A stretch of DNA of 64,000 nucleotides from Candidatus Thorarchaeota archaeon (GCA_046482545.1 JAWOEX010000028.1:224001-288000); one strand, 5' to 3'; shown: positions 1-5,803, numbered from the stretch's first letter. Notes: generated by a model not told the origin, from the sequence alone. Numbers and translations are program-made.

Positions 1-514
1 GGTGAGGATAAGCAGCCCGCATCGAGCCTTCCAACACAAAGGCGTCTTCAAGAATTTCTTCAGTCAGGCTTTCCATTCTGAGAAGGCCTGGAACAGACCA
101 TGAGCTTCGGCTAACCAGCATGCCCACCGAAGTGGGATTGTCTGAGAGAGGGCGCCAGACAAAGAAACTCAGCCGACCGCCGGATGATCTCTCATATCTT
201 TCACTCATGGCTGCTAGAACACTGCTGGCAGAATGAGAAAGATCAATACCAAGAGGAACATGCGCCAGAAGGCGAGCTGCATAGACCTCTACTTTGAATA
301 ATCCAACCCTTGCCACAAGTCCTTTGTCTTCATCCAGAAAAACTTGGGCTGGCTGAAGTCTTGTGCGCACAAATACGACTACTATCAGTATCGCTATGAT
401 TCCAATCACCGATTCGATTTTCACCATCAATGACGCTACGAATATCAGACGAAGCCCCCAAGCCGCAAGTATGGCACTACAGAGCAGCCAAGGTAAACCG
501 CGAAATCTACTCAT
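1..514 (-). CDS. Hypothetical membrane protein with two N-terminal hydrophobic segments; partial, runs off the left edge
   Basis: Not in the ORF track. Manual translation from ATG at 514 gives MSRFRGLPWLLCSAILAAWGLRLIFVASLMVKIESVIGIIAILIVVVFVRTRLQPAQ...SMRAAYPH, open to position 1. The start overlaps the end of the helicase gene. Confidence 0.8.
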   Translation of the reverse strand, partial: MSRFRGLPWLLCSAILAAWGLRLIFVASLMVKIESVIGIIAILIVVVFVRTRLQPAQVFLDEDKGLVARVGLFKVEVYAARLLAHVPLGIDLSHSASSVLAAMSERYERSSGGRLSFFVWRPLSDNPTSVGMLVSRSSWSVPGLLRMESLTEEILEDAFVLEGSMRAAYPH

Positions 515-2465
515 TTCTATTCCTCCCTCCCTCAATGAACCATTCAATGGCCTCTCTCAATTCACTCAGACCGGTGTAAGGCCACATATCAGCAATAACA
601 TCAGCGCCCAGTACTCTGGAATACTTCACGAATCTATTGTCAAGTAGAACACAAATACCTCGGTCTCTCAGATTTCTGCGGAGGCGTCCGATAAGCTGTG
701 TAACCCGACGGATGGCAGGTAATACGGACGAGTAGTAGTATCCATGCCCCTGGCCAAAGCGTTGATCGTAGAACTCCTGCAGGGCGAGATTATAGGAAGT
801 CGGTGGTGAGAATGGAACACCTACGGCAATAATTAAGTTGAGTAGTGACGACCCCTCGTCCACCAAATCTACCCCTTCCGTAAGTCTTCCTGCGTATACA
901 GAGAAGATGGTATGTGGGCGGTCAAGGAGAGCATCAAGTACTGCTTCGATTCGTACCCCTCGTTTTTCTGTGATCTTTCCGCGATAACGGTTGTTGATGT
1001 CGTAGCTCAGAACTTGATTCATGATCCTGTAACTTGGAAAAGCAACGAGCGCGCTCTTATCAGCAGGTACACTCTCAAGGGTGGCCTCGATCTTGGTAGC
1101 GATATTTCGCCACAAAGATTCGTTTCTTTCCGTATATTTTGTCGTTAGCTGTTTATCAACCAAGACTATACGGGAATCTCGCGGAAAGGGGCTATCAATT
1201 TCAGCCACAGCTGGGCTTGTGATTCCCAGTAGCCTAGCGTAGTGTTCGGAAGGACGCATTGTTCCAGACATCAGCAATGCCGACCTAGCATTAACGAGCA
1301 CCGGAGCTGTCAATCCAGCAGAATTCAATGGTCGTATTGCGAGTACTGCGTTCGAACAGCTGACCTCCCAGTTCGGGTTTAGGAGCTCAAGTGTGATGTG
1401 CCATGAATTGCTGTCAATTGCACGAAAAGCATTGAATAAGAAATCAAGCAGCTGGTCCACTTTTCCTTCCAGCTTGGTTGACAAAGATTCGAACTGGCCA
1501 CCGGTTACCAGAGCTTCCAGCTGTTCTGGAACCACGAACCTAGGAAATACATCGTATGCAGGCAGTTCCTCTTCGTTACTACTAAGTTGGTCTAGGTGTG
1601 TCATCAAACTCTCAAAAAGAAATTCTATGCTTTCTCCAACCCAAGAAACTCCCAATTCATTTTCAATATGCGGAAGCTGTTCCAGCAATGCTTCAATGTC
1701 TTTTCCGGTCAGAAGAGAACCTTCAGAACTCAGCACAAATGAAGGTAGATTGTGAGCTTCATCTATGAGCAGGTCAATCTGATTCAAATCAAGTGAGAGG
1801 GTGCTTAGTAGTGCGCGGCGAGCGCGGTGGTTGAAAAGATAACCGTAGGAACCAATCAAGACCTTGCTGGATTTAGCACACCACCTCATAATCTCGTACG
1901 GGCAAGAACCTGATACTTCAGCTTGCTCTTCAATCAGCGCGCGGGTTATAACTGCCTTTTTGAGTAACTCATCAACCAAGTCAACTGACTCAGCTCTAAT
2001 CCGGGGAGCTTCTCCCTTTCCGCCCTTGTAGAAACTCCAATAGTATGAACACCTTCCAGTTTTGATAGCCTCAGCACATGATTTGAGAAAGCCCTGTTTG
2101 AAATCGGTATCTAGTTGATGGCGAAGGGGACACATGTGCGACCGAGAAACCATACTCGTTGATGTTACTGGGCTCTGGCCGGCATCCTCTTGATACTTTT
2201 TTCGGAGCTGTTCGAGTTCAGACTCGAACACTTCCGACTGTGAGTGAGTCCTCGTGAGAATCAAAAGCTGGGCTGATGAATCGTTATCTCTTGCTGCAAA
2301 CCAACCTGCCAGCGCAGCGATTGTCTTTCCCACGCCACAACCTGCCGATAGCATCCCGATTTTTCGTCCTCTGAAAACATCAGCTGCATGTGTGACAGCC
2401 TGCTCTTGATTTGGCCTCGGTTGATAGGGGAAATGATTCATGGGATTTGAAGATGACAGACTCAT
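507..2465 (-). CDS. XPD/Rad3/DinG-family Fe-S DNA helicase
   Basis: Q motif (PRPNQ), Walker A GCGVGKT, four Fe-S cysteines (HMCPL, SCAE, RCSYY, SCPYE), LIDEAHNL, SGT and QLIGRLRR. ATG at 2465 overlaps the upstream TAA. Confidence 0.93.
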   Translation of the reverse strand: MSLSSSNPMNHFPYQPRPNQEQAVTHAADVFRGRKIGMLSAGCGVGKTIAALAGWFAARDNDSSAQLLILTRTHSQSEVFESELEQLRKKYQEDAGQSPVTSTSMVSRSHMCPLRHQLDTDFKQGFLKSCAEAIKTGRCSYYWSFYKGGKGEAPRIRAESVDLVDELLKKAVITRALIEEQAEVSGSCPYEIMRWCAKSSKVLIGSYGYLFNHRARRALLSTLSLDLNQIDLLIDEAHNLPSFVLSSEGSLLTGKDIEALLEQLPHIENELGVSWVGESIEFLFESLMTHLDQLSSNEEELPAYDVFPRFVVPEQLEALVTGGQFESLSTKLEGKVDQLLDFLFNAFRAIDSNSWHITLELLNPNWEVSCSNAVLAIRPLNSAGLTAPVLVNARSALLMSGTMRPSEHYARLLGITSPAVAEIDSPFPRDSRIVLVDKQLTTKYTERNESLWRNIATKIEATLESVPADKSALVAFPSYRIMNQVLSYDINNRYRGKITEKRGVRIEAVLDALLDRPHTIFSVYAGRLTEGVDLVDEGSSLLNLIIAVGVPFSPPTSYNLALQEFYDQRFGQGHGYYYSSVLPAIRRVTQLIGRLRRNLRDRGICVLLDNRFVKYSRVLGADVIADMWPYTGLSELREAIEWFIEGGRNRNE

Positions 2466-4551: not shown

Positions 4552-4997
4552 GCAATCACCCCCATCAAATTGGAAAGTGGATCCCGGATTATGACAAGTC
4601 TCCTGAAGTTCGCCAGTTTCTTGGCTGGAATCAGGACATTATCATCCTGCAAAGAAACTGCTATTCCCGACAGTAGCCTCAATATGGTATCTTTGAGTCC
4701 GGTGGGGACAGGCAACTGAAGACCTGTGTCATCTGTAATCCCACAGGCGCTAGTATATCCGCCAAGTATATCGTAATGTGAACCTTGTACACCAGCAGTC
4801 CCCGGCCATACTGACTCATCTATACCTGCGAGTTCCAATCTGCCTTTCAGGTCTTCAAGAAAAGAAAACCATTCCCATGATTCTTCGGACTGTCTGTCTC
4901 TTGTTATCATGCCTGCCAAGGCCCCTTCCATCCAAGCCCTGTTTGGTGTTGATTCAAGGGACGCTTTAGGCTGCAACAAAGAGCCGGTTGCTAACAT
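4548..4997 (-). CDS. Hypothetical protein (149 aa)
   Basis: TAATG overlap with the upstream gene, ATGA overlap with radA, GGAGG SD-like sequence upstream. Confidence 0.8.
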   Translation of the reverse strand: MLATGSLLQPKASLESTPNRAWMEGALAGMITRDRQSEESWEWFSFLEDLKGRLELAGIDESVWPGTAGVQGSHYDILGGYTSACGITDDTGLQLPVPTGLKDTILRLLSGIAVSLQDDNVLIPAKKLANFRRLVIIRDPLSNLMGVIA

Positions 4998-5803
4998 TAA
5001 GCAACCCCTCCTTCAACAACACCGCTGCTGTATCCAAATACATGCGGCAGAGGCTCAAGATTTCGCAACCATCTCTTCAGTTGCTGTATTCTCTTGCATT
5101 TGAGCTGCTCCCTAGAGAGCACCGAGTTCATCAATGCCCCTGATGCCATTACAATGCGATCGAGAGCCGTAAGCCGCTTTTCATAGGGTAAAGCGGTGTA
5201 CCAAGGCATCGTGAAGAAACCAGATTCACCAGCCAAGAATTCTCGCCAATCAACGAGCCAACCCATTGTAGCCGGGTCTTTATCGACAATATCTAAGAGT
5301 ACACTTGTCCATTCAGCCCACCGATTCATCAGGTGCTTCAGTCGAGACACAATACTCCCAATGGATCCGTCCTCCGATTCAATACCAAGAATCGCTCTCA
5401 CATGTGTATCTTGATGCTGGAAAGCACTCAAAGCGAGCGCCTTTCCTGCTTCAGCAGTCATCAAAATAAATAGTGGAACGAGACCAGGGATGTCACAGGG
5501 CCTGAGCTCAGCCTCTTCATATGGAACAAATCTATCGAAGCCATCTAGAATGTCGCTTCGGAGACCGCATATGAGAAACAGCATTGGTCCTCGAAGAAGA
5601 TATGCTTTCCTGATTGTTCGATCTTTAGAGGTGTACTGTGTGTCGATCACCCTCGTCACATCGGCCATCTCTGTGTCTTCAAGAAGCTCCAGAGCCTGGT
5701 CGAGGTTTTTCTCAAGATTCACCATGTTTATTCCCACATACCTATTGTAAATCGCTAGCCTCAATGTTTCGTTCACCATGTCTACGGTATATGGGCGCTC
5801 CAT
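4997..5803 (-). CDS. Hypothetical protein (268 aa), first gene of the operon
   Basis: Long ORF directly downstream of a TATA-like element and the conserved boxes. Confidence 0.82.
   Translation of the reverse strand: MERPYTVDMVNETLRLAIYNRYVGINMVNLEKNLDQALELLEDTEMADVTRVIDTQYTSKDRTIRKAYLLRGPMLFLICGLRSDILDGFDRFVPYEEAELRPCDIPGLVPLFILMTAEAGKALALSAFQHQDTHVRAILGIESEDGSIGSIVSRLKHLMNRWAEWTSVLLDIVDKDPATMGWLVDWREFLAGESGFFTMPWYTALPYEKRLTALDRIVMASGALMNSVLSREQLKCKRIQQLKRWLRNLEPLPHVFGYSSGVVEGGVA

Follow-up and report, generated by a model that had tools for sequence, protein, structure and literature searches.

A conserved fifteen-gene Thorarchaeota operon encodes a second RadA, repair paralogues and a predicted ATP-dead VirB4 relative

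Organization of the operon

The window analysed here is a 64,000-nucleotide stretch of a Candidatus Thorarchaeota archaeon (GCA_046482545.1, JAWOEX010000028.1:224001-288000; G000:C9:224001-288000 in our numbering), whose genome of 3.05 Mb is 99% complete. Positions 1-5803 hold seven minus-strand open reading frames (ORFs), which form the front of the operon described below. An original prediction made from the DNA alone had proposed that these genes are translationally coupled, and an ORF check confirmed all seven together with their junctions: TAATG at 4997 and 2465, ATGA at 4551-4548 and 3520-3517, a 3-nt gap before a TTG start at 3079, and a ATGAGTAG overlap at 514-507. In order of transcription the genes are as follows (TM, transmembrane segments; aa, amino acids).

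4997..5725, minus strand: first gene, soluble protein with no assigned family, 242 aa; the ORF is open to 5803
4548..4997, minus strand: soluble protein with no assigned family, 149 aa; the least constant operon member
3517..4551, minus strand: second full-length RadA paralogue with HhH domain and FxxG motif; Walker A/B and catalytic Glu intact, L1 Gly-Arg-Gly replaced
3083..3520, minus strand: C4 zinc ribbon and winged-helix protein, 145 aa; weak MCM-type winged-helix match
2465..3079, minus strand: soluble alpha/beta protein with no assigned family, 204 aa; the most conserved of the three unassigned proteins
507..2465, minus strand: second XPD-family Fe-S helicase; the ORF is open to 2489
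1..514, minus strand: 2-TM membrane protein of ~192 aa, extending 64 nt beyond the window start

Pfam returned HhH and Rad51 domains, a weak zinc-ribbon/winged helix-turn-helix (wHTH) match and the XPD set, in agreement with the identities first proposed. Two congeners and most homologues begin at 5725, the most likely start of the first gene, which would thus encode 242 aa instead of the 268 aa originally given. The XPD start is most likely the ATG at 2465 (652 aa).

The operon is not confined to these seven genes, as had been thought, but crosses the window edge into eight further same-strand genes with mostly overlapping junctions (G000:C9:214422-223939). The complete unit comprises 15 genes over ~15.4 kb, with its far end at G000:C9:214422. 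The downstream eight begin with a gene for a 90-aa protein, after which come those for a 758-aa 2-TM protein of VirB4 fold and a Hel308-type helicase of 727 aa that bears a SWIM finger. Next in order are a 514-aa protein with 2 TM, the first RadB-like protein (209 aa), a 4-TM protein of 317 aa, the other RadB-like protein (238 aa, Walker A dead) and, last, a FEN1-family nuclease of 335 aa. Upstream, an AAnnTGAA-like element near -47 scores above shuffled sequences (LL 74 versus ~36), a value inflated by the kinship of the genomes; the element selected no sensible regulon in the host genome. The operon in Thorarchaeota is not described in the literature searched on recombination or DNA transfer in Asgard archaea, which left most subscription journals outside its scope.

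A predicted ATP-dead VirB4 relative at the membrane

An AF2 model of the 758-aa protein (pLDDT 74) was used to search for structural homologues with Foldseek, and the top match was TrwK/VirB4 (E 9e-13). Re-alignment to VirB4 (PDB code: 4AG5) gave a Z-score of 28.6 with a root-mean-square deviation (rmsd) of 2.9 over 326 residues, compared with a Z-score of 24.2 for HerA. Only full-length TrwK/VirB4 chains could be aligned over residues ~83-650, including the N-terminal alpha/beta region, at an rmsd of ~10. The protein has two N-terminal TM, a C-terminal winged helix and neither Walker motif. The Walker A site reads GGxxxER, and the canonical loop is absent from 18/18 Thorarchaeota copies and 31/31 aligned Asgard members; only the two weakest outliers retain it. 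By its modelled fold and motif state, the 758-aa protein is thus assigned as an ATP-dead VirB4 relative.

Homologues were found in 28 genomes of nine other Asgard families (~157 clusters overall), so that the dead VirB4 family spans ten. Often the homologue comes in two pieces, one with the 2-TM/N-terminal part and the other with the pseudo-ATPase and wHTH, and a split homologue has its best score against CedD (E 4e-8). A Hel308-type helicase lies nearby in 14 of the 19 dead-VirB4 loci from the other families, the five exceptions being on contigs of 6-14 kb. Also at these loci are paralogues of RadA, RadB or FEN1, or a membrane protein with HhH. In family f9 (L147:14326-16506, and L148, L153, L154 and L156), the dead VirB4 is ~1260 aa long with 3-4 TM and comes after a membrane protein whose HhH domain is RadA-like; this gene pair diverges from the helicase gene, and the HhH membrane protein recalls a ComEA-type DNA receptor.

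The 2-TM protein in the window is related to the N-terminal 2-TM and alpha/beta half by way of split homologues (E down to 2e-8 in a small search), a relation that depends on these intermediates since direct profile comparison with the VirB4-fold protein was not significant. The three further membrane proteins of the operon have short hairpin anchors or 4-5 TM segments only.

The operon RadA is a diverged paralogue

The RadA of the operon carries the HhH domain and Walker motifs, and its divergence (GPARGGKT, FVSG and a C-terminal tail) is as originally noted. The HhH domain recurs among the operon RadAs. Walker A, Walker B, the catalytic Glu and the L2 GGH are each kept in 19/19 of them, the polymerization motif is FxxG in 22/25 and FxxA in 2/25, and the L1 Gly-Arg-Gly is replaced in all 25. 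In RAD51, the L1 arginine contacts DNA. The motifs predict a catalytically intact enzyme.

A canonical radA, with FETA and GSFRSGKT, is found elsewhere in the genome (contig C14). The operon protein is 35% identical to this copy and scores 207 bits against a RadA equivalog cut-off of 361, below the housekeeping threshold. The median identity is 56% among operon RadAs and 87% among canonical copies of the same genomes. Sequence comparison thus identifies the operon RadA as a paralogue and not the housekeeping copy, and as the faster evolving of the two.

A tree that included the genome's other radA genes was calculated from 68 proteins; it is unrooted, has long branches and does not include eukaryotic sequences. 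The operon RadAs form a separate clade, in a single group with a copy on contig C31 (support 100/100). This group, together with six RadA paralogues that adjoin a 758-aa homologue in two other Asgard families, is split from all canonical RadAs with support of 93/93, just below the starred level. A seventh VirB4-linked RadA (G045) lies outside the clade. Profile scores of the operon RadA favour archaeal RadA over Rad51/Dmc1. Duplication of RadA in Asgard archaea is known, with Rad51/DMC1 arising later (PMC12722695); the portion of that study considered here deals with a Heimdall/Njord/Gerd/Loki clade, with long branches removed, and mentions neither Thorarchaeota nor operons.

The C31 copy is a third full-length RadA (L003:1390-2430; G000:C31:8589-9629) on a long branch within the operon-RadA clade. 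Upstream of it are a TBP-like ORF, recognized by eye, and two ORFs without assignment. The GH3-family gene found at the operon's flank in other genera is close by, and this third copy is probably a displaced duplicate. The frame of the canonical radA (L004:1486-2526) has no ATG, GTG or TTG before codon ~90 of 346, and the gene probably uses an unusual start codon.

Helicases, nuclease and small proteins

The operon XPD retains Walker A, the four Fe-S cysteines, DEAH and motif VI in 17/17 copies; a second, canonical-type XPD is encoded on contig C28. The presence of canonical radA and XPD elsewhere bears out the proposal of a dedicated, non-housekeeping recombination module. Catalytic motifs and SWIM finger of the Hel308-type helicase are intact in 17/17. 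In the FEN1 paralogue the acidic residues are kept in 14/14 and a PIP-like tail in 12/14. One of the RadB-like proteins is intact and the other is Walker-dead. We rejected the view that all operon enzymes are spare copies, given that the operon helicase outscores the other Hel308 matches in the genome. Profile scores also led us to reject GEN1/EXO1 as the identity of the FEN1-family gene and FANCJ/RTEL1 as that of the XPD-family gene. Two Ski2-like helicases elsewhere (G000:C32:8673-10904 and C10:55178-57745) have SWIM-like CxC..CxH motifs, and the one on C32 is without recognizable Walker motifs.

Of the front proteins, that of 242 aa is seen only in Thorarchaeota (27/36 family genomes, 0/24 outside) and has a conserved WREFLAGESG motif; no match was found in Pfam, NCBIfam, the PDB (nanobody-type noise) or the Atlas (hits sub-0.9). 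For the 149-aa protein, Pfam and NCBIfam, the sole scans made, returned no family. The 204-aa protein has a mean column identity of 59% and occurs in the one sister-family genome (1/1) and in none of the other Asgard families searched. Its model (pLDDT 83) gave no clear fold match in PDB Foldseek, a wide VIA search (best Z 4.9) or the Atlas, which is not proof of a new fold. These three proteins had been put forward as recombination mediators. No support for this was found, and complex prediction of RadA with them scored 0.00, which is evidence neither way; the two downstream RadB-like paralogues are the likelier candidates.

By its domains, the 145-aa zinc-ribbon/winged-helix protein is a probable DNA binder. 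A distant homologue of it (E 2e-6), a 236-aa zinc-ribbon protein (G000:C34:37721-38431), is encoded upstream of the ribosomal-protein superoperon.

Conservation and selection

The order of the operon is kept, as far as the contigs extend, in 18 of 20 loci and in five more, amounting to 23 other Thorarchaeota genomes of 14 genera, and on this account it is not a chance run of ORFs. Conservation is partial in the sister family, where one genome (G037) retains RadA-Zn-204-XPD-VirB4-Hel308-514. The original prediction had named two circumstances that would count against it, a sole, vertically inherited radA and neighbours that are not conserved; with a canonical radA elsewhere in the genome and strongly conserved neighbours, neither applies.

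Variants occur within the family. The 149-aa gene is absent from G003 and has a second RadA-like gene in its place in G008 and G032. In G027 the operon is split, with Zn145 through FEN1 kept, the operon RadA gone and a single RadA match in the genome; the module is therefore not simply RadA-centred. Many of the 76 family genomes are incomplete; 52 have the 204-aa gene, and 52 the 758-aa gene. The operon was not found in several genomes of 90-92% completeness.

In comparison to a congener, dN of the operon genes is 0.11-0.29 and dS/pS is near saturation. Where dS was computable, dN/dS is 0.05-0.12, with the 149-aa gene at 0.12. These codon comparisons indicate that all operon genes are under purifying selection.

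A possible role in DNA transfer

The closest known systems appear to be Ced, of Sulfolobales (CedA, A1, A2, B and D), and Ted, of Thermoproteales, both domesticated type IV secretion system (T4SS) DNA importers that feed homologous recombination, with Ted loci found beside HerA/Rad50 (PMC9905601, PMC11823120). Like these, the operon is chromosomal and encodes a membrane-linked protein of VirB4/HerA fold with small TM partners; a split homologue scores best against CedD, and Ted loci likewise adjoin recombination genes. Unlike them, its ATPase is dead and carries a winged helix, there is no CedA/VirB6 or CedA1 pilin match, and the operon has a private RadA, XPD, FEN1, RadB-like pair and Hel308. 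On its motifs the ATPase places the operon outside Ced/Ted (Walker A in 0/18 and 0/31). The best structural match is to VirB4 of conjugative type IV secretion, as in Thermoanaerobacter pseudethanolicus (4AG5) and R388 TrwK, from which the operon protein differs in the missing Walker A/B, the N-terminal TM hairpin and the wHTH tail; no relaxase, coupling protein or mobile-element sign was seen at the operon. The combination of Hel308, SWIM and paired RadA paralogues, one of them Walker-dead, in one unit resembles eukaryotic HELQ with the RAD51 paralogues (BCDX2) and the SWIM-containing Shu complex. HELQ falls on a branch with Asgard Hel308 (PMC10946056). Operon-protein profiles give their top scores to archaeal RadA, RadB, FEN1 and XPD and not to the eukaryotic paralogues; the likeness to HELQ/BCDX2 is one of function.

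The VirB4 fold, the membrane proteins, the conserved order, the linked RadA clade and the Ced/Ted precedent lead us to favour, tentatively and somewhat short of calling it probable, a reading in which the operon supplies the recipient half, in the cytoplasm, of a domesticated type IV DNA-transfer system derived from VirB4 and equipped with recombination enzymes of its own. From family knowledge we infer the DNA-handling steps that would connect these genes, given the content, order, folds and motif states observed. The dead VirB4 and the membrane proteins would serve as a scaffold at the site of DNA arrival. The XPD-type and Hel308-type helicases, which we take to be 5'-3' and 3'-5' in polarity, would move and unwind incoming DNA, and the RadB-like pair and small DNA-binding proteins would load the second RadA, which could then pair the incoming strand with the chromosome. 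Hel308 may restrict tract length, and the FEN1 paralogue may trim flaps. The suggestion of a membrane link to DNA import, made first for the 2-TM protein, thus gains the VirB4-fold protein and more membrane proteins downstream of the window; import itself we infer.

In the most speculative step, force and cell contact would be supplied by an unlinked locus on contig C28 (L190:2503-12146; G000:C28:76502-86145). This locus, a candidate motor for the operon, comprises a TFB paralogue, a TadA/VirB11 ATPase that has N-terminal cysteines, a small pilin-like ORF of 1 TM, an anchored surface protein (698 aa) and a CedD-like ATPase of 1239 aa with 3 TM, whose Walker motifs are intact. The 1239-aa ATPase is present in 32/36 family genomes, and the same arrangement of genes surrounds it in 13 of 14 Thorarchaeota loci; the exception, G013, is rearranged. 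A DprA homologue lies at L212 (G000:C13:4920-5843; E 1e-65), unlinked to the operon.

Several results weigh against a transfer function. No hidden Markov model match to CedA or TrbL/VirB6 and no PF03772 (ComEC) match was found in the nearly complete genome, although the CedA result is weakened by the identity of only 13% between CedA and TedA. No small 2-TM ORF of CedA1/VirB2 pilin type was recognized in the operon, where no profile search was made, and the operon has no active translocase ATPase. Its membrane proteins match no family. The C28-type locus is present in two genomes, G004 and G015, in which no operon was found, and no promoter signal shared by operon and C28 locus emerged. Finally, no other Hel308 match in the genome scores as high as the operon helicase (262 versus 137 bits), which suits ordinary repair.

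That last result also fits a station, tethered to the membrane, that repairs the cell's own chromosome or restarts its forks, in which the VirB4 relic, no longer a motor or a transporter, only anchors a second recombination kit, for instance to pair sister or polyploid copies. The ATPase is dead throughout the phylum, the genome lacks the channel matches sought, Hel308, FEN1 and RadB-like paralogues belong to self-repair, and HELQ is a binding partner of RAD51 paralogues (PMC13623763). Housekeeping RadA and XPD, two further FEN1-like genes and a HerA-Mre11-Rad50-like cluster are nonetheless encoded elsewhere, several genomes of 90-92% completeness appear to do without the operon, and a self-repair need for four membrane proteins of T4SS ancestry is hard to explain, so that we regard such a station as unlikely, if the most serious rival.

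Two other explanations carry less weight. The genes could be a co-regulated stress or DNA-damage operon, in which repair paralogues and envelope proteins are induced jointly and make up no single machine. This agrees with the looser, split or divergently transcribed arrangement outside Thorarchaeota, the order-restricted front genes and the loss of the operon RadA from the split operon of G027; it is improbable in view of the overlapping junctions through 15 genes, the fixed order over 14 genera, and the dead VirB4, helicase and RadA clade that remain neighbours across families. A donor-side or mobile-element function, such as a captured conjugative element moving chromosomal DNA outward, or a membrane defence system, seems to us quite improbable. 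VirB4/TrwB/HerA folds do serve export and anti-phage systems, and both the fast evolution of the genes and a somewhat patchy presence would be in keeping with it. The GC content, however, resembles that of the remainder of the window, no integrase or relaxase was seen in the operon flanks, the sole tRNA of the contig is ~40 kb distant, and the GH3-family upstream neighbour is common to many genera. Viral contigs gave no relatives, and plasmids only DUF87 matches at 21-23% identity.

The operon bears on DNA exchange among Asgard archaea and on the antecedents of meiotic recombination. A bolder extension of DNA transfer, which we consider rather unlikely, is an ancient Asgard cell-to-cell chromosome exchange in which a VirB4-derived pseudo-ATPase acts as membrane scaffold for a HELQ-like helicase, RadB-like loaders and a dedicated second recombinase, so that exchange recombination is kept apart from that of repair. 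If true, prokaryotes would have a parallel to the division of labour between Rad51 and Dmc1, without orthology between the two. On the favoured DNA-transfer reading the operon would be a variant of domesticated type IV DNA handling; even as a self-repair station, the membrane tethering of recombination by a retired secretion ATPase would be without precedent in the literature searched. In either case it offers a list of 15 proteins, a second RadA clade whose filament and DNA-binding motifs are changed, and a dead VirB4 family of ten Asgard families.

Neighbouring genes

Beyond the FEN1 paralogue lie genes for a 206-aa HEAT-like, a 200-aa 5-TM and a 2597-aa secreted protein (L001:1003-2363; G000:C9:205213-213006). 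The 200-aa 5-TM gene trails the operon cluster in several genomes and in G037, and could be a channel candidate. On the other side, 1.5 kb upstream of the operon, a further RadB-like gene (window 7280-8008, minus strand) encodes 242 aa with a Rad51 Pfam match (E 8e-14) and a degenerate Walker A, and is followed by a Yip1-domain membrane gene (window 6317-6934).

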